From a virus (Duplodnaviria > Heunggongvirae > Uroviricota > Caudoviricetes): DNA of 64,000 nucleotides. Within the stretch, counting starts at the first letter, position 1, and each line of letters starts with the position of its first letter. This document shows, piece after piece, positions 3,551 through 62,896 of this stretch. The stretch is taken from IMG/VR virus record IMGVR_UViG_3300027733_000047. One strand, 5' to 3'. The position numbers were made by a program, and so were the translations under genes. The notes under the pieces were generated by a model. That model was not told where the DNA came from. It made no database searches and saw only the letters and a list, made by a program, of their open reading frames with translations.

Positions 3551-3640
3551 TTCCCAGAAAAAAATTTTTTAAAAAGGGGGTACCCCTATATGACCTTAAA
3601 AAAATTCCCAGAAAATTTTTGCGTGAAGGGTCACCCCCTA
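3551..3640. repeat. R2 repeat, two copies (second degenerate)
   Basis: ttcccagaaaaaaattttttaaaaagggggtacccct and ttcccagaaaatttttgcgtgaagggtcaccccc. Confidence 0.6.
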
Positions 3641-3735
3641 TGTGGGGTGGCATACGGGGGGGTATGTAAGGGGGGTAACGGGGGGAGGGGGTACGGGGGG
3701 AGGGGTACCCCTTATATATGGGGGAGGGGTACGTA
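3628..3735 (+). repeat. G-rich tract with at least 8 G4-G7 runs (G-quadruplex-prone) built from GGGGTAC / GTACCCC units
   Basis: ggggtggcatacgggggggtatgtaaggggggtaacggggggagggggtacggggggaggggtacccc...gggggaggggtac; unique in an AT-rich genome. Confidence 0.6.
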
Positions 3736-3736
3736 T

Positions 3737-3775
3737 ATAAAAAAACCCCCTTTTGATTTTAAGGGGGTTTTTAGA
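3737..3775. terminator. bidirectional intrinsic terminator hairpin
   Basis: aaaaaaacccccttttgattttaagggggttttt: 9-bp GC stem flanked by A/T runs; downstream of 3791..4345. Confidence 0.6.
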
Positions 3776-3790
3776 CGTTTTAAGGATACC

Positions 3791-4345
3791 TTATTCAGTT
3801 ATAAGGTATTCAGTCCCGCAGAACTTAATTAGTGTTATACGGCTAATGTATGGGGTTATCATACGGAAATCATCTTCAACGGCTACAAGTCCACGTCCTG
3901 CTGTTTTTTTAGGTGTAGGGTTAAAATAGATAGGTGCCCACAAGTCCATACTGATAGCCTCAGCCTCAGTAATTTCCTTGCCGTTATGAAAGTAGCCAAG
4001 TAATTCAACTGCCTCAGTTTTCAATATCTTTGCGTCTAACATCATTTCACCCGTTTTAAGTGAACGGATAAGGGTAGTTGATAGCCTTTCTTTGCCCTTC
4101 ATTTCCTCAGCCTTAAATTCAGTTTCACCCGTTAAATTAATCACTTTGTTAGTGTAATTGTGGTTAAGGTAGGCATTTTTTACCCTTACAAGTTTTTGAA
4201 CTTGCTTTGTACCCTTTACAACACGTGAACGGCTATCGTCCACAAAATACGTTAAACTAATTGAAGTTGAACGTGTAAAGTCCTTTACTAATTCAGCGAA
4301 ATTAGCCACACTGATAGGCTGTTGGTTTAATACTGCTGTTTGCAT
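3791..4345 (-). CDS. hypothetical protein
   Basis: 184-aa ORF followed by hairpin terminator 3737-3775. Confidence 0.6.
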   Translation of the reverse strand: MQTAVLNQQPISVANFAELVKDFTRSTSISLTYFVDDSRSRVVKGTKQVQKLVRVKNAYLNHNYTNKVINLTGETEFKAEEMKGKERLSTTLIRSLKTGEMMLDAKILKTEAVELLGYFHNGKEITEAEAISMDLWAPIYFNPTPKKTAGRGLVAVEDDFRMITPYISRITLIKFCGTEYLITE

Positions 4346-4408
4346 TTTTTGTTGGTTTAATTGTGAAAAGATGATGTAATTTAGTAAAATAAATTCAATA
4401 TACCAAAT

Positions 4409-4636
4409 TTATTTTTTATCATTGTAAATTATAAAAATTGTTGATGTAATAAATAAAACTAATGAAGTAACCCAACCCCAACACAAAAACCAACCTACGT
4501 GCCCTTTATCCATTGCGTGCGCGTATTCGTACATACTGCTTTCACTTGTCCCAGGTTCAGCACCCAAAATAAATAACGTACATAAACCTAAAACGATAAG
4601 GGAAATTTCTTGAGCATAGAAAATAAAATTTTTCAT
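4409..4636 (-). CDS. small membrane protein (paralog of 6418..6687)
   Basis: Shares LGAEPGTSESSMYEY(A/E)H core with 6418..6687 ORF; hydrophobic. Confidence 0.55.
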   Translation of the reverse strand: MKNFIFYAQEISLIVLGLCTLFILGAEPGTSESSMYEYAHAMDKGHVGWFLCWGWVTSLVLFITSTIFIIYNDKK

Positions 4637-4740
4637 AATTTGAATAGTTTAATTGTTAAAAGATGATGCAATTTACAAAATAATTTTGATATAGCAAATT
4701 TATTTTTGAATTATTTTGATATTTTTTTTATTGATATATG

Positions 4741-4795
4741 TTGCTAAAATGTTTAGCAATTTGCTAAATTATTTAGTATGCTAATATTTTTAGCA
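4741..4795. promoter_or_regulatory. cluster of three TGCTAA(A)-N-TTAGCA palindromes
   Basis: ttgctaaaatgtttagcaa, ttgctaaattatttagta, atgctaatatttttagcat. Confidence 0.4.
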
Positions 4796-4799
4796 TTAT

Positions 4800-4900
4800 A
4801 GGGTGCGTTGGAGTATACTTCCCGATTTGTAGTCGTCTGTGCCTTTGCATAGCAAAGGTAAGGAAAGCAATTGATATAAACAAATTTATTTTGAATTATT
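4800..4900 (-). ncRNA. mini-unit E: promoter plus conserved about-65-nt segment ending in GGAGTATACTCC palindrome (candidate sRNA)
   Basis: Minus-strand read ...tgctatgcaaaggcacagacgactacaaatcgggaagtatactccaacgcaccc; member of the 8-copy family. Confidence 0.35.
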
Positions 4901-4975
4901 TTTAAATTATTTTAAATAAAAAAAATCAGGATATAGAAATATCCCGATTTATCCTTATACAATATAAACCCTAAT

Positions 4976-5107
4976 TAAAACGATTGTTGCGTCGTGTCAT
5001 TTTGTCCCACGACTGATTGCCGTGACAACCATATCCAGCACGACAAGATGAACCAAAGATAGCGATTGAACCAAGCAATACCAAAGCAAATAATAATTTT
5101 TTCATTT
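4976..5107 (-). CDS. small secreted Cys-rich peptide (44 aa)
   Basis: My translation MKKLLFALVLLGSIAIFGSSCRAGYGCHGNQSWDKMTRRNNRFN; promoter motif 5120-5180 abuts ATG; below ORF-track cutoff. Confidence 0.4.
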
Positions 5108-5223
5108 TTAAAAGTTTAATTGTTAATTGATAATGCAAATATAGGACAATAAATTCAAACTACCAAATTTATTTTTAAAAAGATTTATTTGTTTATTTGA
5201 AATTAATTTTGTATTATTGCTGA

Positions 5224-5406
5224 ATGAAAAAATTATTATTACTTATTGCGATTGCTACCTTATCGGGTTGCTATGAATATCGTAAATTGCCCAATGTTAA
5301 ACGTGTTAATAAGGGTGATGTAAGAAAAGCAATGAAACATAGCACTTCAAATTATGAAATGCCAAGACAAAGCACTTATAACGTTTCTTATCATTATAAC
5401 CATTAA
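5224..5406 (+). CDS. putative small lipoprotein
   Basis: MKKLLLLIAIATLSGC lipobox-like N-terminus; plus strand. Confidence 0.35.
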   Translation: MKKLLLLIAIATLSGCYEYRKLPNVKRVNKGDVRKAMKHSTSNYEMPRQSTYNVSYHYNH

Positions 5407-5417
5407 ACCAAACTAAA

Positions 5418-5606
5418 ATGAAAATCAAAACAAAATTAAGCCCAGAAAATGAAATGCTATCTTTGTATTTATCAATTATTGTTAGCCTTATATTTTTCGC
5501 CTTGTGGGTGTTTACAGACATCAACCCAACAAAGTTATTTTTTAACTACATCGTGTTTTATTGTGTTGTTGTGCTGATTGGTTTCTTTTATCCTTTCAAA
5601 AAATAA
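5418..5606 (+). CDS. small membrane protein
   Basis: 62-aa hydrophobic ORF in tandem with 5224..5406. Confidence 0.35.
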   Translation: MKIKTKLSPENEMLSLYLSIIVSLIFFALWVFTDINPTKLFFNYIVFYCVVVLIGFFYPFKK

Positions 5607-5628
5607 TTTAAAAAAAGATTAAAAAAGA

Positions 5629-5728
5629 TTTGGTAGAATGAATAATTCTACCTATCTTTGATTTATCAAAGCGATAAGACGACGACAAGTCGGTAGGTAT
5701 ACTCCACGCTACGTGCTATTTTTTTTAT
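5629..5728 (+). ncRNA. mini-unit A (candidate sRNA)
   Basis: TTTGG(5629)-N19-TATCTTTG(5653-5660), then ...gacgacgacaagtcggtaggtatactccacgctacgtgctaTTTTTTTT. Confidence 0.4.
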
Positions 5729-5782
5729 CCAATATATAAAAAAATTGTCAGATATTACTCTGACAATCATATTATAGTTTAT

Positions 5783-6190
5783 TTAACTATAATAAATTTC
5801 CTCCAAATCCTTCAAAACAGCTTTGCCCTTATCCGTCCAAGATATACCTTTGAGCCATACAAAATGCTCAAGGTTTTGAGGGTTGCGCCAATCCATTCCT
5901 TCGCCCTCAAATAGCCATTTTAAAGCCGTTTTATAGTCAGATGCGCCCAATTGGATAGTACGTCCAATTAACAAATCAAAAGCCTTCAAATCGGCTTGTA
6001 AACGCAATTCCTCCTCGATGGCATTCTCACGGCAAACCTCGGAAAAACGAGCGAAATCGGCTTGTAACTGCTCGTCAGACATAGCCGAATAATCCAAGCC
6101 ACGAGGGCGAAAGCCGTATGCGTCCTTGTGAAAATCGCTATAAACTTGTAGCATTTCGTTTCTCTCGGCAAGTGATAAGGTAGTAGTCAT
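5783..6190 (-). CDS. hypothetical protein (GC-rich compositional outlier)
   Basis: 135-aa ORF; clearly higher GC than neighbours; promoter variant 6195-6260. Confidence 0.6.
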   Translation of the reverse strand: MTTTLSLAERNEMLQVYSDFHKDAYGFRPRGLDYSAMSDEQLQADFARFSEVCRENAIEEELRLQADLKAFDLLIGRTIQLGASDYKTALKWLFEGEGMDWRNPQNLEHFVWLKGISWTDKGKAVLKDLEEIYYS

Positions 6191-6293
6191 AATTTGAATG
6201 TTTAAATGTTAAAAGATAATGCAATTTAGCAAAATAAATTCAAAGCACCAAATTTATTTTCATATAATTTTTTTTATAATATATTGGTTTATA

Positions 6294-6412
6294 TCGCATA
6301 AAAAAAATATCGTGTAGGTTGGAGTATACTTCCCGATAGTGTATATCGTATTGCAACTTTGCTAAAGCAAAGATAAGGTAGTTTTTTCAAACTACCAAAT
6401 CTTTTGCAAAGT
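6294..6412 (-). ncRNA. mini-unit F (candidate sRNA)
   Basis: Minus strand TTTGG-N19-TTATCTTTG, then ctttagcaaagttgcaatacgatatacactatcgggaagtatactccaacctacacgataTTTTTTTT. Confidence 0.4.
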
Positions 6413-6417
6413 ATTTT

Positions 6418-6687
6418 TTATATTTTTTTGTATATACGGATTGCAGTAGTAACTACAAACGTAACAAATGATAAACCTAATGCCAAAAGCAAATACCAAC
6501 CAAAATTACCTTTATCGCAAAAATGCTCGTATTCATACATAGAACTCTCACTTGTCCCAGGCTCAGCGCCTAATACACATAATAGGCAAAAAGCAAAAAT
6601 ACACATTGAAAAAAATTGTGCGTTTTCAATAAATTCATTAAAAAACTTTTTCATAATAGATTGTTTAAATGTTAAAAGATAGTGCAA
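6418..6687 (-). CDS. small membrane protein (paralog of 4409..4636)
   Basis: LGAEPGTSESSMYEYEH core; promoter variant 6660-6725. Confidence 0.55.
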   Translation of the reverse strand: MHYLLTFKQSIMKKFFNEFIENAQFFSMCIFAFCLLCVLGAEPGTSESSMYEYEHFCDKGNFGWYLLLALGLSFVTFVVTTAIRIYKKI

Positions 6688-6756
6688 TTTACTAAAATAA
6701 ATTCAAACTACCAAATTTATTTTTAAAAAAATAAATAAAAAATAATTGCCAAAATA

Positions 6757-6853
6757 TTTGTTTTATAATTTAAAAACCCTTACCTTTGCTAAAGCAAAGG
6801 CAAAGACGTTTAAACAACGGGAAGTATACTCCACGCTACGTGTTATTTTTTTT
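6757..6853 (+). ncRNA. mini-unit G (candidate sRNA)
   Basis: TTTG-N19-TTACCTTTG, then ctaaagcaaaggcaaagacgtttaaacaacgggaagtatactccacgctacgtgttaTTTTTTTT. Confidence 0.4.
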
Positions 6854-6907
6854 ATATATGAAAAAAAAATTTTGCAAAGGTACAACATTATTTCCATACT
6901 ACCAAAT

Positions 6908-6946
6908 AAAGTTATCCACATAGGCAAAAAATATGTTAATAACTTT
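6908..6946. promoter_or_regulatory. hairpin AAAGTTAT-CCACA...-ATAACTTT containing a perfect DnaA box (TTATCCACA 6912-6920)
   Basis: 8-bp stem; precedes the plus-strand promoter of 7022..7330. Confidence 0.45.
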
Positions 6947-7021
6947 TCTAAAATAAATTTGGTAGGTTAAAAAAATAGTCCTATTTTTACATCAGTTCTT
7001 TCACATTTAAACCAATCTATT

Positions 7022-7330
7022 ATGACACAATTTGAAACGGCTATTGCCCAAGCCGAAATTGGCGAATTGCAAACTCCAAGTGTTAGTTATGGTAAAACTG
7101 CCATAGATTACTTTTGGTATCAAGTTTCAGTACATCACTTTAACCTTAAAATTATGGCAAGTGGTATGAAATGTCGGGGTATTAAATTTACCGATATTAA
7201 AAAATACTACGGCTTGAAAGGTAATTGCGCTAAAAAATGTCTGGCACAATTTGAAAATGTCGTTACTCGTTACCGATTAAAAATGATTAACGACCATCTC
7301 AACACAATGGAAACTGAATACTCGTTTTAA
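7022..7330 (+). CDS. hypothetical protein (lone plus-strand gene with own terminator)
   Basis: 102-aa ORF; TTTGG-N19-TAtttTTa upstream (6957-6990); strong intrinsic terminator 7345-7371. Confidence 0.6.
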   Translation: MTQFETAIAQAEIGELQTPSVSYGKTAIDYFWYQVSVHHFNLKIMASGMKCRGIKFTDIKKYYGLKGNCAKKCLAQFENVVTRYRLKMINDHLNTMETEYSF

Positions 7331-7344
7331 ACTCCAATCCAACA

Positions 7345-7371
7345 AAGCACCCTTCGGGGTGTTTTTTTTTG
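7345..7371 (+). terminator. rho-independent terminator of 7022..7330
   Basis: gcacccttcggggtgttttttttt: CACCC-TTCG-GGGTG followed by T9. Confidence 0.75.
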
Positions 7372-7375
7372 CCCC

Positions 7376-7395
7376 ATGTACACAAAAGTGTGCAT
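7376..7395. promoter_or_regulatory. 20-bp palindrome ATGTACACAAAAGTGTGCAT (operator-like, copy 1 of 9)
   Basis: Family consensus ATGTACACAA|TTGTGTACAT; lies between the terminator and the unit-B promoter. Confidence 0.5.
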
Positions 7396-7426
7396 TTAAA
7401 ATAATTTAAAAATAATTCAAAATAAA

Positions 7427-7527
7427 TTTGGTAGTATCAAATTAATGTACTACATTTGTATTGTCAATGTGAATGACAGACGATTAAAACTCGGGAGGTA
7501 TACTCCAAGCTACGTCATATTTTTTTA
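7427..7527 (+). ncRNA. mini-unit B (candidate sRNA)
   Basis: TTTGG(7427)-N19-TACATTTG(7451-7458), then tattgtcaatgtgaatgacagacgattaaaactcgggaggtatactccaagctacgtcataTTTTTTT. Confidence 0.45.
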
Positions 7528-7769
7528 GCGCTCCAAAAATCTTTTCATTCTTTCATATTCATAATTTTCATAATATAATATTTTTTTAATGAATTTAAAT
7601 AATGCTTTCATAGTATATGGATTTAATTATATATATTCAAATAATATACCAAACCAAAATTATTTTTCATATCCTATTTGTCAGCTCAAAACTGACAATG
7701 CAGATATAAAACATAACTCATTTTAAGCCGATTTAACGGCATATATTTATCAGATAAGGTAATCATAAG

Positions 7770-7802
7770 GGGCATAAAAAAAGGGGCTAAATTAGCCCCT
7801 TA
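7770..7802 (-). terminator. intrinsic terminator of 7821..8687
   Basis: Perfect palindrome aaggggctaaattagcccctt followed (on minus strand) by T7. Confidence 0.65.
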
Positions 7803-7820
7803 TTCATTCGTATAGCAATT

Positions 7821-8687
7821 TTAATTTGCCGTTGCCATATCGTATATGGTATCAAATATTTTGCCGTCTAGTGTTTTTTGCACATCAAACGATTTCGCAA
7901 ATTTGGTATGCAATATCTCGTTGAAGGCATTGTAACCTAACCACATATTAGGCGAAGTATTAAGGTATCTAGATTCAGCCAATATCGTATCTGCAACTAT
8001 TTCAGCATTTAAGGACGGCTCGGGATTTTTGTCCGATTTTTCATACTTAAATATAGCAGTTTCCTTGCATACGTCCTTTACGAATTTTTGCACATCAGAA
8101 ACGATTGCACCACTCAAAAACTCTGCCTTCGGTTTCAACGTGTAATACTCGTTATTCAAAAAATTGCTAACAAGGGTTTCAATTTCGGGCAATACAAACT
8201 CAACGATACTACCTTTATGCTTTACGTTAAAAGACATTTTGGTTTCAGCAACGTGCAAACCATTAGTACAAACTTGGCGAAAATATCCAAAACTGCCCGA
8301 CGTTTTACAACTGCCGTCATACGAATTAACGAAACGTAACATTGGCTTGATAATATCTTTGCCATTAGCCACAACGATATTATATCTATCATCGTTTAAG
8401 ATATAATCAACTGCGAAACTACGATTATCACGATTAATACTACGTGTGTCGTATTGCACATCAGCATTAATCAAATTTTCTTCCACAACGGCAAAAAACT
8501 GCTCGTTGGGTAAATGTCCGTAATTGTCCGAAAATACGCCTACCAACGTGCCGTTGGAATAGATTGCTTTTTCTAATCCCTTACGTGTAGGAGTGCCTAA
8601 AATTTCGGCTAAATTACGCACTTCGCTATCAACGAATACGTTGTCATTCTGCATTGTTTGCCCCTTAAAATTGATACGTGTAGTCAT
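7821..8687 (-). CDS. DUF932-like phage/plasmid protein
   Basis: Motif VNSYDGSCKTSGSFGYFRQVCTNGL resembles DUF932 signature (NSHDGSSA...FR.VCSNG); paralog of 32805..33701. Confidence 0.5.
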   Translation of the reverse strand: MTTRINFKGQTMQNDNVFVDSEVRNLAEILGTPTRKGLEKAIYSNGTLVGVFSDNYGHLPNEQFFAVVEENLINADVQYDTRSINRDNRSFAVDYILNDDRYNIVVANGKDIIKPMLRFVNSYDGSCKTSGSFGYFRQVCTNGLHVAETKMSFNVKHKGSIVEFVLPEIETLVSNFLNNEYYTLKPKAEFLSGAIVSDVQKFVKDVCKETAIFKYEKSDKNPEPSLNAEIVADTILAESRYLNTSPNMWLGYNAFNEILHTKFAKSFDVQKTLDGKIFDTIYDMATAN

Positions 8688-8740
8688 AACTGGGTTGCAT
8701 TTTAGCCACTCGCATTGTGGTTAGGTTGAATTGTGAGATA

Positions 8741-8780
8741 CAAATATCGCATTAGTTTTTCAAACCACCAAATTTATTTT
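8741..8780 (-). promoter_or_regulatory. Bacteroidota sigma-A-type promoter (TTTGG-N19-TAnnTTTG on minus strand)
   Basis: Plus strand reads caaatatcgc...ccaaatttatttt; drives 7821..8687. Confidence 0.55.
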
Positions 8781-8823
8781 GAATTATTTTTAAAATAGTT
8801 ATACACATATTATTTTTTATAAT

Positions 8824-8836
8824 GTGAATAACTTTG
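8824..8836. promoter_or_regulatory. half-site TGTGAATAACTTT (reverse complement of the TTATTCACA DnaA-box variant)
   Basis: Same extended motif AAGTTATNCACA as the other copies. Confidence 0.3.
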
Positions 8837-8842
8837 CACCCT

Positions 8843-8948
8843 AAAAAAAATAGCGTGTAGGTTGGAGTATACTTCCCGCCATTGTTAGTGCCGTATGTCA
8901 TTCAAATTGACAATACAAATATAGGATAATAAATTGAAACTACCAAAT
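8843..8948 (-). ncRNA. mini-unit D (candidate sRNA)
   Basis: Minus strand TTTGG-N19-TATATTTG, then tattgtcaatttgaatgacatacggcactaacaatggcgggaagtatactccaacctacacgctaTTTTTTTT; near-identical 5' segment to unit B. Confidence 0.45.
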
Positions 8949-9004
8949 TTATTTTAAAAAAAAATGCCCTACATTTGTAAGGCATTTAATTCGTGTGCTG
9001 ATTA

Positions 9005-9162
9005 ACACTGATAAGTTATCGGTATTATCTCAAACGCTTCAATAAAACCAGTTTCTGCTTGTAACACTTCAACAAGTGCAAGAGCATCAACTCTGTGTTC
9101 AAATGCTTTGTGCATAATACCCGCACCATTTTCAAATACGAGCCAAATTGTTTTTTCCATAA
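9005..9162 (-). CDS. small hypothetical protein (52 aa)
   Basis: My translation MEKTIWLVFENGAG...; promoter 9170-9230. Confidence 0.35.
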
Positions 9163-9307
9163 TAGATTGTTTTAATTGTGAGATACAAATATAGGATTAA
9201 TAATTCAAACTACCAAATATTTTTTGAAGTATTTTTAAAATATTTTTTTGGTGGTCTGGAATTAATGTTGTATGTTTGCTTTGTTTAAATGAATAGGTTA
9301 AAAGATA

Positions 9308-9345
9308 ATCCCTGATGTGTCTACATCGGGGATACTTTTTATTTT
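9308..9345 (+). terminator. plus-strand hairpin plus T-run
   Basis: atccctgatgt-gtctac-acatcggggat (11-bp stem, one G-U) then tttttatttt. Confidence 0.5.
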
Positions 9346-9354
9346 GTATAAACT

Positions 9355-9381
9355 AAAAAACCCCACACTTTTGGTGTAGGG
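9355..9381 (-). terminator. intrinsic terminator of 9406..9669
   Basis: Minus strand reads CCCTACAC-caaaa-GTGTGGGG then TTTTTT. Confidence 0.6.
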
Positions 9382-9405
9382 AATTTATTCACAATTAAAC
9401 TAACT

Positions 9406-10540: not shown

Positions 10541-10583
10541 CTGCAAATATAAGATTAATAATTGAATGTACCAAATTTATTTT
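10541..10583 (-). promoter_or_regulatory. consensus promoter abutting ATG (leaderless-type)
   Basis: ctgcaaatataagattaataattgaatgtaccaaatttatttt; -7 box ends 4 nt before ATG of 10318..10539. Confidence 0.6.
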
Positions 10584-15527: not shown

Positions 15528-15627
15528 ATTTGGTAGTGTCAATTATTATTACGATATTTGTATTGTCAATGTATGACAGACGATTCGCTCGGTAGGTATA
15601 CTCCAACCTACGCCATATTTTTTTTAG
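15528..15627 (+). ncRNA. mini-unit C (candidate sRNA)
   Basis: TTTGG(15528)-N19-gATATTTG, then tattgtcaatgtatgacagacgattcgctcggtaggtatactccaacctacgccataTTTTTTTT. Confidence 0.45.
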
Positions 15628-22168: not shown

Positions 22169-22205
22169 AATGCAAATATAAGATTAAAAAACGAAACTAC
22201 CAAAT

Positions 22206-32564: not shown

Positions 32565-32605
32565 CTTTTGTTATCAACCAAATTTATTTTAATAAAAAAA
32601 AGATT

Positions 32606-32690
32606 TTTTTATTCCAAAATATAATCCTATATTTGCATAGCAATCATGCAAGACGACTACAAATCGGGAGGTATACTCCAACCTACCCCT
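32606..32690 (+). ncRNA. mini-unit H (candidate sRNA, no T-run)
   Basis: TATATTTG, then catagcaatcatgcaagacgactacaaatcgggaggtatactccaacctacc; shares gacgactacaaatcggga(a/g)gtatactccaac with unit E. Confidence 0.3.
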
Positions 32691-32691
32691 A

Positions 32692-32730
32692 TTTGCTAAA
32701 TTCTTTAGTACTTGCTAAAATCTTTAGTAT
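32692..32730. promoter_or_regulatory. two tandem TTGCTAAA-N3-TTTAGTA palindromes
   Basis: tttgctaaattctttagta / cttgctaaaatctttagtat directly after mini-unit H. Confidence 0.4.
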
Positions 32731-32745
32731 TGGATAAAACAAAAA

Positions 32746-32804: not shown

Positions 32805-33701
32805 TTAAGCAAGGCTCAACTCGTTTAAAGCAAATTCAAAACTTGCTTGGTTTTTCTTATACGATGTACCAACCAACATGTTTTCCCAATCACCATTTAC
32901 ACGCTTGGGTGCTTTTCTCTCATGTGTTGTCCATGATGTAACACCACTGTGTAACCCCCACATGTTCATTCCCTTCTGCTCCATTTCCTTATTGATGTGT
33001 GTGTATAAATCATCCATGATGTTAATCGACTTTTGTGTTAACTTGTCGAATTCAGCAATGCTGGTAATTACTCTATCATAACCCAATACACTCTTAACCA
33101 TTTTATCGGCTAATCCTTTTGATACTTCTGTAGATACAAATCTACGATATCTCTCAACTTGGCGAAGGCTCTCACCTAATGCTGTTTCAATCAGGGAAGG
33201 AATCGATTTGATTTTCTCATTCAATGTCGCTGTATGTCTAAACTTCGCGTTACCTTCTCTATAGAAACGGAAAAACTGATTCATACAACTCATAGTCAAA
33301 TCACCAATACCAACACTTAACCCTGTACTACCATCATTGCTGTCTATGATTGTAACATAACGTTTGATGATGTCATCACCTACTTTGCTGTCACCTTCGA
33401 TAGCCAACTGCATAAACACCCTACGACCACCATTGATACTTCCAGCCTTGGATACAGTTAACTCACTACCAAACTTCTCCATACCGCGTAATACCATCTC
33501 AACCACATCTGCATTCTGCGATACAGTATAACCTTCTTTTACTGTATTGATACACTCATTCGTTGAACTGTTAAATAAACCGTAATACGGTGTTATCATT
33601 TGCTCACCTTGGTTATTGTGCGCAATCAAGGGCGCTTTCTCAATAGTGAAATCTAAACCATGTACAGATAAAATGTCTTGTACTTTCTCATTGTAATTCA
33701 T
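32805..33701 (-). CDS. DUF932-like phage/plasmid protein
   Basis: 298 aa; IIDSNDGSTGLSVGIGDLTMSCMNQF resembles DUF932 core; paralog of 7821..8687; promoter 33730-33770. Confidence 0.45.
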   Translation of the reverse strand: MNYNEKVQDILSVHGLDFTIEKAPLIAHNNQGEQMITPYYGLFNSSTNECINTVKEGYTVSQNADVVEMVLRGMEKFGSELTVSKAGSINGGRRVFMQLAIEGDSKVGDDIIKRYVTIIDSNDGSTGLSVGIGDLTMSCMNQFFRFYREGNAKFRHTATLNEKIKSIPSLIETALGESLRQVERYRRFVSTEVSKGLADKMVKSVLGYDRVITSIAEFDKLTQKSINIMDDLYTHINKEMEQKGMNMWGLHSGVTSWTTHERKAPKRVNGDWENMLVGTSYKKNQASFEFALNELSLA

Positions 33702-34262: not shown

Positions 34263-34988
34263 CTATATAGCAATGGCAAACCCTGTGGTAAATGCTACCT
34301 TATTATCAGCACCTTTGCCTGTTTGGTTTTTATACTTCAAACCAACTATAACACCCTGTTCGTCCAGAAAACGTAAATCAGTTTCATCACCGTTAACTAC
34401 TCTATAACCGTTATACGTTTCAGGTAACTTATTAAATACCATGGCTACATTATAACCTTTCTTTAATACCGCCATGGCATGTTTGTCGTTATCTTCACTC
34501 CTGCTAAAGGTTAAATGATAATTGCTAGGCATGGACCCGTCAAACCTTTTAGGATTCTTGGTATAATCATAAAATTGTATATCAGGATATAATTCGAAAA
34601 TATTCTTACCTTCACGTATCTTTAATTTTTCCCAACGTATATCACTAGTACCGTTTAACCTGAATACTGGTATTGCTTTACCTTCATGTTTTTTGATAGC
34701 TTTGCTCACCTCTAAATCTAATTGAGCTAAAAACTCTTTGCGATTGGCTAAATACCATTCAGTTTTATTACGACGACCTTCCTGAACTGTATCGTACATC
34801 CCACCAAACCCTGACTTAAATAAACAGGCCGATGAACACCCTGAACTAGCATGTGGACATAAATTAACACCCTGACTATTATCAGTATAAGGTGACATGT
34901 ACATAATATAGGTTATATAACCTAATTTAGCACCTTTGATTGTTTTGTGGTTGTTTGTGGTTAACAACGTACTTTTGTAGTAAGACAT
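34263..34988 (-). CDS. hypothetical Cys-cluster protein
   Basis: 241 aa; CPHASSGCSSAC cluster; promoter 35000-35055. Confidence 0.6.
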   Translation of the reverse strand: MSYYKSTLLTTNNHKTIKGAKLGYITYIMYMSPYTDNSQGVNLCPHASSGCSSACLFKSGFGGMYDTVQEGRRNKTEWYLANRKEFLAQLDLEVSKAIKKHEGKAIPVFRLNGTSDIRWEKLKIREGKNIFELYPDIQFYDYTKNPKRFDGSMPSNYHLTFSRSEDNDKHAMAVLKKGYNVAMVFNKLPETYNGYRVVNGDETDLRFLDEQGVIVGLKYKNQTGKGADNKVAFTTGFAIAI

Positions 34989-58290: not shown

Positions 58291-58632
58291 TTAATTTTTA
58301 TATTCTACATATGTTATTTTAATTCCTAAGTCTTTTGCGTAAGCTATTTCTTCGGCTACGCCCTTAGATTTGTCCCAACCTTCCATCATGTAAACAATCA
58401 TTTCATCACATCTATTTAAGAATGTCAGACAAAAGTTTTCCCAAAAAGGCCAATCGGTTGGCATGTCAGGTTGAAAGTTTACTGCGGTATGTCCGTATAG
58501 TATTGGGCTAAAAGCTACAACGCCATTGTTGATAAGTTCAGCTGTATACTTGGAAACCTTTTGATAGTTTTCTTCTCTAACATTGTCATCAGGATGACTA
58601 TATGGAGATGAAACAAAGATTAGTTTTCTCAC
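58291..58632 (-). CDS. DUF4406 / nucleoside 2-deoxyribosyltransferase-like protein
   Basis: IFVSSPYS... ...CDEMIVYMMEGWDKSKGVAEEIAYAKDLG pattern. Confidence 0.5.
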   Translation of the reverse strand: MRKLIFVSSPYSHPDDNVREENYQKVSKYTAELINNGVVAFSPILYGHTAVNFQPDMPTDWPFWENFCLTFLNRCDEMIVYMMEGWDKSKGVAEEIAYAKDLGIKITYVEYKN

Positions 58633-59408
58633 TTCAAACGATTTTTAATTTCAGTTAATGTTGTTTGGTTTTCAAAGTTACCATCTAGGTAAAGTGTTTT
58701 CAATTGACCTTTGGTTTCTGTTTCCCAAGTTACTTTATCGAATAGTTTTAATTCACCATCGTCATCATTTTTACCAACGTACAAAAGTCCTGTAGCTGAT
58801 TTCTTCATACCATCATCTGTAATTGGGTCTTTAAAGATTTCACGACCTTCAAAATTAACCTCAACATATGTTGCTTTCATTGCAAACCCGAATGTATCGC
58901 GAGTGTTGAATTGGTAAGTGAATGAACCAACACCCAACACGATATTTGTGCTTGCAAATCCTTTTGCTTCTAATCTAGAACAGATTTCTTCTGCTCTGTC
59001 GATTGTGATGCTGTCACCATAGATTGCACCGATGTGTGAATCTAGGACCTTGTAACCTTGTTCGTTAATGGTTCCACCGAATACATCCCAAAGCAATTCA
59101 ATAACTCCTTTGTAAGATGGGTCTTCGTCATCAACTAAACTTACCATTTTAGAACGGGTATTATATCCGCAAACAATATCAACAGGGTCGCCTGAATCAG
59201 GACGTATTACCAATTTACCATCACGAGCTAGGATTTCTTCTTTGAGAATAGGTAAATACTCTGTACACATTCTCCAGAGGTCAAATGTATCACTTACCAT
59301 ACTAAGTATTCCTGTAGGATATTTTGCTAATAACCCTCTAATACCGTTTAATTCATCAGTAACTGTTTTTGTTACAGTTCTTTTTCTAGTTTCAATAACT
59401 TTTTTCAT
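58629..59408 (-). CDS. nicotinamide phosphoribosyltransferase-family protein, C-terminal half (split gene)
   Basis: KLVIRPDSGDPVDIV, IVLGVGSFTYQ, EIFKDPITD align with the NAMPT C-terminal half (LIIRPDSGNPLD, IAFGSGGGLLQ, NVFKDPVAD). Confidence 0.75.
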   Translation of the reverse strand: MKKVIETRKRTVTKTVTDELNGIRGLLAKYPTGILSMVSDTFDLWRMCTEYLPILKEEILARDGKLVIRPDSGDPVDIVCGYNTRSKMVSLVDDEDPSYKGVIELLWDVFGGTINEQGYKVLDSHIGAIYGDSITIDRAEEICSRLEAKGFASTNIVLGVGSFTYQFNTRDTFGFAMKATYVEVNFEGREIFKDPITDDGMKKSATGLLYVGKNDDDGELKLFDKVTWETETKGQLKTLYLDGNFENQTTLTEIKNRLK

Positions 59409-60476
59409 TATTTAAGTTTTAATTATACTTTTATTTATTCCTTTCTAAAAAATCCATCACTTCAATTTCTTTTGGAACATCTATATTTTTGAACTGTTCT
59501 TTGAACTTTTCAATTAGATGGTCAGCAATTTCCATTGATTCTACCGTAAATTTTATTCTTGTAATATCATCTGGATAATTCTCAAAATTTTCATCTTCGT
59601 ATTTTAAATAATATACTTTCATTGTTTAGGTTGTTTAAGTTTAGAATACAAATATACGAACAATATTTGAAATAACAAAATTAATTTTAAAGGTTTGTAT
59701 TAATTTAATACATTTTTTAGTTTTTTTATGTCTTTTGTGTAGGTAGTAGATATTTATTAGTATGAACCACGAACAAATATACAATAAAATCATTAATAAC
59801 GCAAAATCTCAAATAAGGTCTAAAAAAGATTCTTATTTTGAAAGACATCACATTATCCCTAAAACCGCTGGTGGTGATAATTCAAAAGAAAATATCGTTC
59901 TACTAACAGCTAAAGAACACTTTGTTTGCCACCGTCTATTATGTTTCATATACCCTGAATCAAAATCCCTACGTTTTGCTTTTTGGGCGATGTGTAACCA
60001 ATTAAAAGGCGATGTTAAACGAGATTATAAAGTAACATCAAGAACATACGAAGATGCAAAACTAAAATTCAAAGAAGTTAATTCATCTTTACATAAAGGT
60101 AAAAAACTTTCAGACGAACATCTGTTAAAAATTACCAAAAGAATGTTATCTGATGATAATCCAATGAAAGGTAGAAAAGGTTCTGATAATCCATTATATA
60201 AAAAAGAACGAAGTGAATACACCAAATCTAAAATTTCAAATACCAAACTCTTAAACCCAACAAAAAATTGTAATTTTAAAGGCTTATATGTTACACCTTT
60301 AGGTAAGTTTTATACTTCGGCAGAAGCATCTAAAATACATAAATTAGATAGGTCTGTCATAATTGAAAGATGTAAAGTAAAGTCCGATAAAGTTATTACA
60401 AAAAAAGGTGTATTCTTTTCTAAAGATTTAACAATTAATGATATTGGTAAAACATATAAAGAGGTTGGATGGGATT
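59409..60476. mobile_element. homing-endonuclease-bearing insertion splitting the NAMPT-family gene
   Basis: About 1.07 kb separates the N- and C-terminal NAMPT halves; it contains the HNH ORF and one small ORF. Confidence 0.55.
59431..59622 (-). CDS. hypothetical protein inside the insertion that splits the NAMPT gene
   Basis: 63-aa ORF with promoter variant 59640-59690. Confidence 0.45.
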   Translation of the reverse strand: MKVYYLKYEDENFENYPDDITRIKFTVESMEIADHLIEKFKEQFKNIDVPKEIEVMDFLERNK

Positions 60477-60499
60477 TTATATCTCAACCTCAGAAATAA
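59762..60499 (+). CDS. HNH homing endonuclease
   Basis: FERHHIIPKTAGGDNSKENIVLLTAKEHFVCH HNH motif; plus strand between the two NAMPT halves. Confidence 0.7.
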   Translation: MNHEQIYNKIINNAKSQIRSKKDSYFERHHIIPKTAGGDNSKENIVLLTAKEHFVCHRLLCFIYPESKSLRFAFWAMCNQLKGDVKRDYKVTSRTYEDAKLKFKEVNSSLHKGKKLSDEHLLKITKRMLSDDNPMKGRKGSDNPLYKKERSEYTKSKISNTKLLNPTKNCNFKGLYVTPLGKFYTSAEASKIHKLDRSVIIERCKVKSDKVITKKGVFFSKDLTINDIGKTYKEVGWDFISQPQK

Positions 60500-61307
60500 T
60501 GTTTCCATTATCATCATAAGTTATCTCTACTTTATATTCTTCTTCAACTTCAACCTTTTTAAACTCGGTTATAGAGCACATTACCGAGTGTTCGGTTGCG
60601 TTTACGCTACCACCAACGAATCCTGTTTCACCATAATACTTTCTAGCACCGCCGATAGCTGGCAATGAATCGGTACCTGAGAATGATGTCAAGTGACCTA
60701 ACCCTGAGCTTATTGTTGCATCGATTGAATCCAATCCTCTCATTGAGAAATCATGTCCTTGCCAGTCGATAAACCATGCTCTTTCAGCATCAGTTTTTTC
60801 TTGCCACTTGGTTAATACCTTACGATATTGGTGAGCGATGGTAGCAGATGTTGTTGGTTTCCACAAAAGGTTTGAAATGATTGTTTCAAGGTAATTTGTT
60901 ATCCAATAGAAATCAGGATGTGTGTTGTGGATTGTAAGAATAGGAATTCTCATTGGTACTAGTGTTCCTTCTTCTAGTATCTTTACATGGATAGGTAAGT
61001 AACCCAAGTCATGTAGTTTTTCAAAGTGTGTAACATCGTAATCGGTACCTAAGTACATTGATAGTTCGCGTTTAATTTCACCACAAACTTCAGATTTCAT
61101 TCTATTAAAGAAATCATCTCTGAATGCTTCGTTGATTTGTTTCATTACCATTTGTTGACCAAATGATACAACTTTATCACAACCCTTTGGAGCGTATTTG
61201 TTGCTACGTGGTGTAAAGTTTGAATAAACTAATGTTGTACCTTGTGGATACATTTGATGGTGTGCTGTTTTATAACCATCGGTAAGTAAAAGTGGATTGA
61301 TTTTCAT
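60477..61307 (-). CDS. nicotinamide phosphoribosyltransferase-family protein, N-terminal half (split gene)
   Basis: INPLLLTDGYKTAHHQMYPQGT ... FSGTDSLPAIGGARKYYG ... ATEHSVM align with the NAMPT N-terminal half (NILLATDSYKVTHYKQYP ... FKGTDTVAGLALIKKYYG ... AAEHSTI); the C-terminal roughly 30 aa do not align. Confidence 0.75.
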   Translation of the reverse strand: MKINPLLLTDGYKTAHHQMYPQGTTLVYSNFTPRSNKYAPKGCDKVVSFGQQMVMKQINEAFRDDFFNRMKSEVCGEIKRELSMYLGTDYDVTHFEKLHDLGYLPIHVKILEEGTLVPMRIPILTIHNTHPDFYWITNYLETIISNLLWKPTTSATIAHQYRKVLTKWQEKTDAERAWFIDWQGHDFSMRGLDSIDATISSGLGHLTSFSGTDSLPAIGGARKYYGETGFVGGSVNATEHSVMCSITEFKKVEVEEEYKVEITYDDNGNIISEVEI

Positions 61308-62107: not shown

Positions 62108-62896
62108 TTATTTATATTGCCATATATATCCAATGGCTGTTTTTGCTCTTCCATTAAGACAATTTGATATGTTGGTCCCAGTTTTTAAATTAAGTTCTTT
62201 AATAATATCTTGAATACTATTCCATTCTTTAATTAAATTCATATTTTTATCATACTGAATTACTTTTTTAAATTTTAAATTAATGTATGGTTTAACACTT
62301 TTTAATTTTTTTGTTAAAAATAATTTTTTATTTTTCTTCAGATAGGCACCATTGTAAATTGAATTCCGTAGAGTACTTAATTTTATGTTGTAGTAATCAG
62401 AAGCAACTTTAATCGATTCCCATTCTTTAATGAAAAAACCCGTTTCATCGTATTCGTAACATTTTTGACATATTTGTTTTTTCCACATTGAAGAGTCTCG
62501 TTTCACACCTAATTTACTATCTGAAATTTTTTTTCTTGTTTCATATGAAAATTTTCGCAAAGTTTTATTATACTCACCAATTTTTCTTTTAGCCTCGGAT
62601 GTATGTTTTCGACCTTCACAATTTCCAGCAACTGGGCATACATTATATTGTGATGGTGTATTATCAATCCACCACTGCTCTCTCTCTATCAATTTATCCT
62701 TATTTTCAATATGTTCTAAAATAATAAATTCAAAATTTTCTTTACCGTATTTATTCCAAGCGTTTTGTAAAATAATTGAATGGTGTTCATTTTTTTTAAG
62801 TTTAGATAAATGAGAATTTTTTCTTTTATTAAATTTAATTGTTGACCCGACGTATCGTTTCATATTGATTTTATTAAGTATACAATATATTACCAT
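62108..62896 (-). CDS. GIY-YIG homing endonuclease
   Basis: VIYCILNKINMKRYVGST...R..SH and NAWNKYGKENFEFIILE (I-TevI-like). Confidence 0.7.
   Translation of the reverse strand: MVIYCILNKINMKRYVGSTIKFNKRKNSHLSKLKKNEHHSIILQNAWNKYGKENFEFIILEHIENKDKLIEREQWWIDNTPSQYNVCPVAGNCEGRKHTSEAKRKIGEYNKTLRKFSYETRKKISDSKLGVKRDSSMWKKQICQKCYEYDETGFFIKEWESIKVASDYYNIKLSTLRNSIYNGAYLKKNKKLFLTKKLKSVKPYINLKFKKVIQYDKNMNLIKEWNSIQDIIKELNLKTGTNISNCLNGRAKTAIGYIWQYK

Follow-up and report, generated by a model that had tools for sequence, protein, structure and literature searches.

Eight short repeated units were identified in a 64,000-nucleotide (nt) stretch of viral DNA (Duplodnaviria; Heunggongvirae; Uroviricota; Caudoviricetes; IMG/VR record IMGVR_UViG_3300027733_000047; the whole stretch is referred to as the window), and comparative analysis supports their being a previously undescribed family of small structured RNA genes of uncultured Flavobacterium-type phages. 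The family is regarded as new because it is not in Rfam and was found in none of the papers searched. A sequence-only reading of the window had proposed eight copies of a promoter-plus-palindrome unit that were more likely to be discrete small RNAs than simple terminators. We searched the window, allowing up to 3 mismatches, with a 23-nt core, CGG[GT]A[AG]GTATACTCCA[AC][CG][CG][CT]AC, and detected eight sites (five on the plus strand and three on the minus strand); 100 shuffles gave no matches, and none were expected by chance. The 10-mer GTATACTCCA was identical in all eight copies. A covariance model built from twelve relatives and run on the window with the filters off recovered the same eight sites at 27.8 to 84 bits and nothing else that was credible, the next-best match (19.5 bits) lying inside an AT-rich promoter. 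Both searches bore out the number and positions of the copies that had been proposed.

The predicted RNA is ~60 to 75 nt long and starts with a leader of 2 to 4 nt, followed by a first hairpin (H1) of 3 to 8 bp with a highly varied sequence (UUGUCA/UGACAG, UGUUCA/UGAACG, UUAUC/GAUAA, UGC/GCA, GCA/UGC and UGCCUU/AAGGCA, among others). A short linker ending in a conserved A leads to a second hairpin (H2), which is always closed by C-G and G-C pairs and has inner pairs that are free to vary and a loop, often A-rich, that ranges from 3 to more than 12 nt. Among 112 distinct sequences, both sides had changed in all six pairs of H1 (90% of cells paired) and in four of the five pairs of H2 (86% paired). 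The covariation score was 0.302, compared to 0.102 in shuffles (0 of 500 reached the observed score) and to 0.045 or less with slid partners. As the alignment had been fitted to the model, a separate test of H2 was added which utilized only the fixed anchors ACG and CGG, with no selection of pairs. In this test, pairs 3 to 6 were standard in 70 to 82% of 61 distinct sequences but in only 11 to 52% in shifted registers, and none of 2,000 permutations reached the observed value. RNAalifold recovered H1 plus the base of H2 unaided. The frequent occurrence of U-G and G-U pairs assigned the fold to the promoter strand. These results indicated that the two 5' hairpins keep their pairing while their sequences change, as the check on folding and covariation proposed with the sequence-only reading had looked for, and they place the units among structured small RNA genes whose helices are kept by compensatory changes on one strand.

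Two further observations concerned H2. Comparison of unit G (15561-15625) with two related loci (L044:5171-5237 and L022:2212-2276) detected near-identical flanks and H1 and a different H2 block (CGAUUCGCUCG versus CGUUUAAACAACG), and the recurrence of a small set of H2 "alleles" among units and contigs suggested gene conversion between copies. A terminator stem competing with H2 could be drawn by eye in units C and F; it was inconsistent across copies and was rejected.

Directly after H2, with no spacer, lies the module GG-K-A-R-GUAUACUCC-A-A-C-C-U-A-C. Thirteen of its first 15 positions were invariant or nearly so across phages whose DUF932 proteins are only 64 to 86% identical. A weak third hairpin of 3 to 4 bp (H3; GGAG/CUCC) is possible within the module. 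Compensatory change was absent from H3, and variation was confined to the 5' strand (G/U and G/A), with each such change breaking a pair; it is thus the sequence of the module, and not a helix, that is conserved, a pattern that fits recognition of the sequence itself. Transitions were present in columns 103 (G/A), 113 (A/G) and 119 (C/U), and transversions were present at three other positions. A longer H3 stem or palindrome (GUAGGU/ACCUAC) was rejected, as it was found in a few copies only, such as unit G, and had no compensation. The units had also been described as containing an exact palindrome, GGAGTATACTCC, but this was present in none of the eight copies: four missed it by one base (GGAAGTATACTCC on the RNA strand), and the other four had an extra G in the region (GGAGGTATACTCC or GTAGGTATACTCC). 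The extended 26-nt palindrome attributed to some copies does not exist, conservation being limited to its right half.

In most copies, the module is followed by a tail of NCNAUA and then U7-9, with a spacer of ~6 nt between CUAC and the T-run. A T-run of at least 6 was detected in 72 of 111 distinct units. Within the window, the T7-9 end ascribed to every copy was present in six of the eight (T7 or T8, after ~6 nt) but not in A and H. In order to define an intrinsic terminator, a G+C-containing hairpin of at least 5 bp ending 0 to 2 nt before a T-run was used as the criterion. A scan of positions 4300-9400 flagged terminators of protein genes (e.g., 7344-7365, 7801-7781 and 8987-8962) but none of the unit T-runs, and an identity of the units with canonical Rho-independent terminators was rejected. 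The units would fall neither among intrinsic terminators nor in any family of Rfam 15. Insofar as sequence comparison can show, the covarying hairpins, the upstream -7 boxes and the non-canonical T-runs favor discrete small RNAs over simple terminators.

The coding potential of the units was also considered, and the earlier view that they are non-coding held. In D and E the frame through the core has no start codon inside the predicted RNA, and in E it is closed by an upstream stop; with no open reading frame (ORF) inside the cassette, a protein-coding micro-gene was rejected. A tRNA-like identity was likewise discarded, ARAGORN detecting no tRNA or tmRNA in the window.

Seven copies have a Bacteroidetes-type promoter (TTTG, 19 nt, TAnnTTTG) that ends 28 to 37 nt 5' of the core. 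Deviations were limited to the -7 box of unit G, which is GATATTTG, and the -33 element of unit H, which is TTTT and not TTTG. The promoter layout put forward in the sequence-only reading was confirmed, as TTTG-N19-TAnnTTTG, directly upstream of seven copies but is not specific to the unit family. The general early promoter of the phage, AAATAAATTTGGTAG-N-TATATTTG, recurs more than 45 times from 4 to 60 kb, almost always on the minus strand and in each case ahead of a small ORF (e.g., 9186-9217, 10544-10575 and 22173-22204, all on the minus strand). Many of these ORFs begin 4 to 6 nt past the -7 box (TTTG-CAGT-ATG and similar) and are predicted to have leaderless messages, which places the start of transcription a few bases past the -7 box. 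As the promoter is generic, the unit family is defined by its transcribed part.

The spacer between the -33 and -7 elements was observed to be an inverted repeat in some unit promoters (5632-5652 and 6377-6396), and palindromic spacers were also present in many unit promoters of six related contigs (L009, L010, L011, L015, L048 and L058). The arms covary between copies (GGTAG/CTACC, GGCAG/CTGCC, GGAAATGTC/GACATTTCC and GGTGGAAT/ATTCCACC). These spacers score as two-way terminator-like hairpins and are lacking in the ordinary early promoters.

The search for the unit in related phage genomes that had been proposed was productive. The covariance model detected 135 units (112 distinct) in viral and metagenome contigs from 77 sources, ~35 of them with a core departing from the exact pattern. 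A scan with the exact-pattern core located at least 5 loci in IMG/VR viral contigs and at least 71 in JGI and other metagenome records. Several units per contig were again observed, one contig of 68 kb having at least 6 and another, of 38 kb, at least 7. A -7 box was present directly upstream in 97 of 111 distinct units, compared to 16% of random positions, and the full -33/-7 arrangement was present in 89 of the 111.

Outside these contigs the unit was not encountered. Searches of both strands of 185,579 bacterial and archaeal species-representative genomes with the exact 22-nt pattern gave only two matches, in metagenome-assembled genomes (MAGs) with G+C contents of 63% and 69% and with no array. 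These two matches approximate the number estimated for chance and look like chance, in a collection outside which the true hosts may lie. No DNA match was detected in 50,697 cultured-phage records, and the covariance model found no unit in Flavobacterium phage 6H or in the first 100 kb of Flavobacterium phage immuto (the last 60 kb not being covered). Rfam 15 gave no match at gathering score over the whole window. With expectation values of up to 5 over 4700-9000, six weak chance matches were obtained, five outside the units and a sixth spanning unit F on the opposite strand at 25 bits, compared to a gathering score of 47. Literature searches retrieved no paper with the core sequence or a description of the unit family, nor was any small RNA found described for phages of Bacteroidetes.

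The eight copies in the window are single and lie at least 500 nt apart. Unit A (4789..4884, minus strand; 27.8 bits) has its promoter at 4853-4884, a predicted RNA running from ~4852 to 4789 and its core at 4802-4824; on its 3' side (4700-4800) there is no T-run, and TGCTAAA/TTTAGCA palindromes follow. Unit B (5629..5726, plus strand; 58.3 bits) has a promoter with a palindromic spacer at 5629-5660, an H1 of UUAUC/GAUAA, an H2 of CGAC/GUCG, a core at 5691-5713 and a T8 run. Unit C (6300..6399, minus strand; 54 bits) also has a palindromic promoter spacer (promoter, 6368-6399), with an H1 of GCA/UGC, an H2 of CGAUA/UAUCG, a core at 6313-6335 and T8. Unit D (6757..6853, plus strand; 54.2 bits) has its promoter at 6757-6788, an H2 of CGUU/AACG, its core at 6818-6840 and T8. 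B, C and D had been read as nearly identical over the first 25 nt of the transcribed part, but their identity there is actually ~60%, and what they have in common is the hairpin and not the sequence. Unit E (7427..7527, plus strand; 84 bits) has its promoter at 7427-7458, its core at 7492-7514 and a T7 run. The H1 of GUCA/UGAC and H2 of CGA/UCG present in E were also found in unit G (15529..15625, plus strand; 83.7 bits), which has its promoter at 15529-15560, its core at 15590-15612 and T8. Unit F (8843..8947, minus strand; 64.5 bits) has its promoter at 8916-8947 and core at 8856-8878, with an H1 of GUCA/UGAC, an H2 of CG(G)CA/UG(G)CG and T8. Unit H (32603..32694, plus strand; 44.9 bits) has its promoter at ~32603-32635, an H1 of GCA/UGC, an H2 of CGA/UCG and a core at 32665-32687, with no T-run.

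Units lacking a T-run were followed by two or three short TGCTAAA/TTTAGCA palindromes, at 4700-4800 for A and 32688-32735 for H. Such palindromes also follow units in related loci (L008, L031, L032, L058, L065, L069, L071 and L077), and one relative has ACTAAA...TTTAGT, in which a G-U pair becomes A-U. They could be extra RNA hairpins or operator sites. A well-formed minus-strand promoter was detected at 6875-6906, 22 nt past the end of unit D and aimed into it; an RNA from this promoter would be antisense to D.

The function that we tentatively favor, with somewhat less than even confidence, is that of an abundant early small RNA acting in trans through the invariant module, the partner probably being a conserved protein for which the RNA serves as a decoy, sponge or cofactor. 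Each unit would be a gene in its own right. Host RNA polymerase would use an ordinary early promoter of the phage (-33 TTTG, -7 TAnnTTTG) and start a few bases past the -7 box. The RNA would then fold into H1, of 3 to 8 bp, and, after the conserved A, H2, closed by C-G and G-C, both being free to change in sequence. The near-invariant module CGG-K-A-R-GUAUACUCC-AACCUAC would follow directly after the hairpins, with NCNAUA and U7-9 as the 3' end of most copies. The RNA would be produced early and abundantly, from many gene copies, and may offer its module in trans as a binding site for a conserved host or phage protein, with H1 and H2 as a stabilizing and presenting scaffold whose shape matters and whose sequence does not. 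Action in trans is suggested by the strong early promoters, the many copies per genome, the isolated position of the units, hairpins maintained in shape only and an invariant module with no sign of internal pairing to hold it. A protein partner is favored because no nucleic acid target was found and because three positions of the module vary by transversion. A dosage-dependent early function is pointed to by the copy number (8 in 64 kb and similar in related contigs), the promoter class (the strongest early class), the spread over more than 70 environmental contigs and the module, which is held invariant while the surrounding proteins diverge.

Several points weigh against this proposal. No T-run of 6 or more was present in 39 of the 111 distinct units, and the unit T-runs in the scanned region (4300-9400) are not preceded by a canonical terminator hairpin, so that the 3' end of the RNA is uncertain. 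The transitions at three module positions also suit wobble-tolerant pairing to a fixed target. Transcription, termination at the T-run, the ends of the RNA, action in trans and a protein partner are all steps that we infer from the arrangement of the sequence.

A more specific version, which we consider rather unlikely, is that the units are a new class of immediate-early and abundant phage RNA effector for host takeover or counter-defense in Bacteroidetes, the module trapping a host protein or being loaded as a false guide. Candidate partners would be a defense nuclease, an RNase or an RNA chaperone or an RNA-guided system such as dCas12f-sigma(E) of Flavobacteriia. Guide RNAs of that system are 85 to 105 nt long, have a sequence-conserved scaffold and are encoded beside dcas12f; they consist of 5' stem-loops and a conserved 3' stretch of 14 to 20 nt (PMC13472631). 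The units have the same plan of stem-loops followed by a conserved 3' stretch, but their 5' part is conserved in shape only, and no ORF of more than 456 amino acids is present in the window under any stop-codon reassignment; the resemblance is a lead only. If the effector interpretation were true, the units would represent the first described effector made of RNA among phages of Bacteroidetes and, unlike RNA anti-CRISPRs (Racrs; solitary repeat units in phages), would not be copies of a host repeat. Very few of the small RNAs that phages encode are understood, and a module that traps or guides a host factor would add an RNA-based route to host takeover or counter-defense as well as a compact, portable RNA ligand. 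Even while no function is known, the covariance model can be used for annotating these phages, and the units give a direct view of Bacteroidetes-type phage promoters and start sites.

The foremost alternative to a protein-binding RNA is a riboregulator acting by base pairing, in which GUAUACUCC(A/G)..CUA(C/U) would be a seed for a conserved host RNA or DNA whose translation, stability or transcription is altered. We regard this as unlikely. A contiguous invariant stretch of 9 to 15 nt flanked by variable hairpins is found in many trans-acting small RNAs, and the transitions in columns 103, 113 and 119 would keep pairs with U, U and G through wobble, but three other module positions vary by transversion, which is at odds with a fixed target. 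In 466 kb of DNA from related phages, which consists of partial genomes, no complementary site with up to 4 mismatches in 16 nt was detected beyond the units themselves. The best duplexes in the window (-25.8 kcal/mol) were within the range of shuffled cores, and those with Escherichia coli 16S, 23S and 5S rRNA (-22.4) were similar to the shuffled mean (-22.2). The 22-nt pattern had likewise given two chance-level matches only on both strands of the 185,579 genomes. A target of only 9 to 12 nt would escape the complementarity searches used. The P4 CI and P1/P7 c4 immunity RNAs are a known example of structured RNAs of ~70 nt that act in trans via a conserved single-stranded stretch and are processed from longer RNAs. 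These RNAs pair with transcripts of their own phage, whereas the units have no complementary site in the 466 kb and each have their own promoter; a seed complementary to phage transcripts, the mark of this class of antisense immunity RNA, thus appears to be absent. Separately, the reverse complement looked similar to the 3' end of 16S rRNA (GGUUGGA..CCUCC), but this similarity was lost against a shuffled control.

It is improbable, in our view, that the units are regulatory or recombination cassettes without an RNA function of their own, in which a promoter and a non-canonical terminator insulate genes or recombine. The model for such an element is the promoter-early stem-loop (PeSL) cassette of T4-type phages, which Arbiol and coworkers reportedly described in 2010 as many early promoters with an adjoining stem-loop among small early genes, with signs of exchange. 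The units resemble PeSL cassettes in their multicopy early promoter and stem-loop setting and in the swaps of H2 blocks between units of close relatives, such as unit G and its counterpart in L044, which have identical flanks and indicate exchange between copies. They also lie at gene boundaries, in both orientations, among small genes with their own promoters, and the palindromic spacers of some unit promoters score as two-way terminators. PeSL cassettes, however, flank ORFs and have no invariant transcribed module, whereas there is no ORF inside a unit, and its promoter drives only ~65 nt with covarying hairpins and an invariant sequence. An invariant 15-nt sequence and two compensated hairpins maintained across distant phages would be needless for insulation or recombination, and ordinary terminators are in use in the same region.

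A function at the level of DNA, with the near-palindromic core as a protein-binding site or as part of a transcription-activated (R-loop) origin with hairpins on the displaced strand, is distinctly improbable. The palindromic center GTATAC, the AT-rich flanks (a T-run and then an A-run) and the clustering of six units beside a G-rich element found at the ends of several whole contigs would suit such an element. The conserved sequence is asymmetric, however, CUCCAACCUAC having no mirror half, and its orientation is always tied to the promoter. On the opposite strand, A-C mismatches would take the place of the G-U pairs, and a density of eight or more origins in 64 kb would be unusual.

We give very little weight to the units being mimics of a host immune RNA, either a copy of a clustered regularly interspaced short palindromic repeat (CRISPR) or a type III antitoxin repeat that soaks up a Cas protein or a toxin. 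Racrs are short and non-coding, have their own promoter and terminator, are sometimes present in several copies and are thought or shown to be decoys (PMC10651486). They are the closest known elements in layout, the units having a similar plan of an own promoter, one short conserved non-coding unit, a putative terminator and several copies, in a phage early region. Racrs copy a host CRISPR repeat, however, whereas the unit core, with two variable hairpins in front of it, matches no bacterial genome beyond the two matches in high-GC MAGs that appear to be due to chance. A repeat mimic should match arrays many times over, and this near-absence therefore counts against mimicry and against placing the units among Racrs by likeness to a host repeat, with the caveat that the true host may be outside the collection. 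The ends GUUG...CAAC are typical of Bacteroidetes type II-C and VI-B CRISPR repeats, and the core appears to lack them. ToxI, a type III antitoxin, is a tandem array cut by its toxin; a strong promoter gives an excess of the RNA, and a terminator separates it from the protein gene. The order of unit F, a terminator and the DUF932 gene resembles ToxI and phage pseudo-ToxI, but the units are dispersed and single, not tandem, and most are convergent with DUF932, only some lying upstream. The tandem direct repeats upstream of a toxin gene that characterize type III antitoxins are therefore missing.

A cis-acting leader, an attenuator (as had been suggested) or an antitermination RNA like HK022 put or lambda nut, controlling a downstream gene, is very improbable, and the attenuator reading was rejected: put and nut act in cis on polymerase reading into an operon, and two hairpins directly after an early promoter, a GACAA loop in one unit H2 that equals the P22 boxB loop sequence, and the continuation of A and H, without a T-run, into further hairpins are reminiscent of them, but the length of the H2 loop ranges from 3 to more than 12 nt and the units have nothing downstream, as B, E, G and H run toward convergent genes on the opposite strand, the next same-strand gene after A, C and F (and, further downstream, after D) has its own promoter, and no conserved same-orientation downstream gene family without its own promoter was found among the neighbors, so that a regulated gene in the same transcript would be lacking.

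In all likelihood, the window represents the early region of a large Flavobacteriia phage that has not been cultured. Its genes include those for thymidylate synthase and NAD salvage, two DUF932 genes, GP88 and genes for homing endonucleases. Among cultured phages, those of Flavobacterium are the closest (52 to 54% protein identity), and contigs with close homologues of its DUF932 protein reach 125 to 231 kb. The DUF932 genes at 7821-8687 and 32805-33701 are paralogues that are ~21% identical, and GP88 is at 34263-34988, all three genes being on the minus strand. The two DUF932 genes have three of the eight units as neighbors: E and F lie on either side of the gene at 7821-8687, F ~170 nt upstream of it, and H is convergent with the other, 119 nt past its stop. 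Among all contigs, the families most often found beside units were DUF932, with two paralogue groups present in 20 and 10 contigs, and GP88, present in 16, and in a recurrent layout a convergent unit is present 100 to 225 nt past the DUF932 stop. A contig fetched through its DUF932 protein alone had this layout as well, with a unit 90 nt past DUF932. This linkage may be plain synteny, and a fold model of DUF932 gave no informative match. Unit G is predicted to be the only plus-strand transcript amid minus-strand genes.

Other features were observed beside the units and their neighbors. A related 125-kb contig encodes an ECF-type sigma factor (Sigma70_r2; L080:6342-6968) a few genes upstream of GP88 and DUF932, and no homologue of it was found in the window. 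Interspersed among the units are small ORFs for predicted membrane or lipoprotein-like proteins (4409-4636, 6418-6687 and 4971-5138 on the minus strand and 5224-5406 and 5418-5606 on the plus strand); two of them are paralogues with GAEPGTSESSMYEY in common, and the families recur beside units in other contigs. The six-unit cluster adjoins a G-rich island at 3560-3790, with repeats of GGGGGGAGGGGTAC and GGGGGTACCCC, in a phage that otherwise has a G+C content of ~30 to 35%. The island is kept in at least 10 related loci; at least 4 whole contigs (L021, L050, L062 and L065) end in it, and in L034 it is ~300 nt from the contig end. It marks either a breakpoint of the assembly or the terminus of a genome. 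A different mini transcription unit is present on the plus strand at 9247-9340, with a good promoter (9247-9278), ~30 nt and a canonical terminator (ATCCCTGATGTGTCTACATCGGGGAT plus a T-run). It opposes the flow of the minus-strand genes, has an identical copy in L047 and an 87%-identical copy in L015, and is a second small-RNA candidate. Finally, the nicotinamide/nicotinate phosphoribosyltransferase gene appears to be split into an N-terminal part (60477-61307) and a C-terminal part (58629-59408), both on the minus strand, with an HNH/NUMOD3 endonuclease gene (59762-60499) on the opposite strand between them and a GIY-YIG endonuclease gene (62108-62896) nearby.

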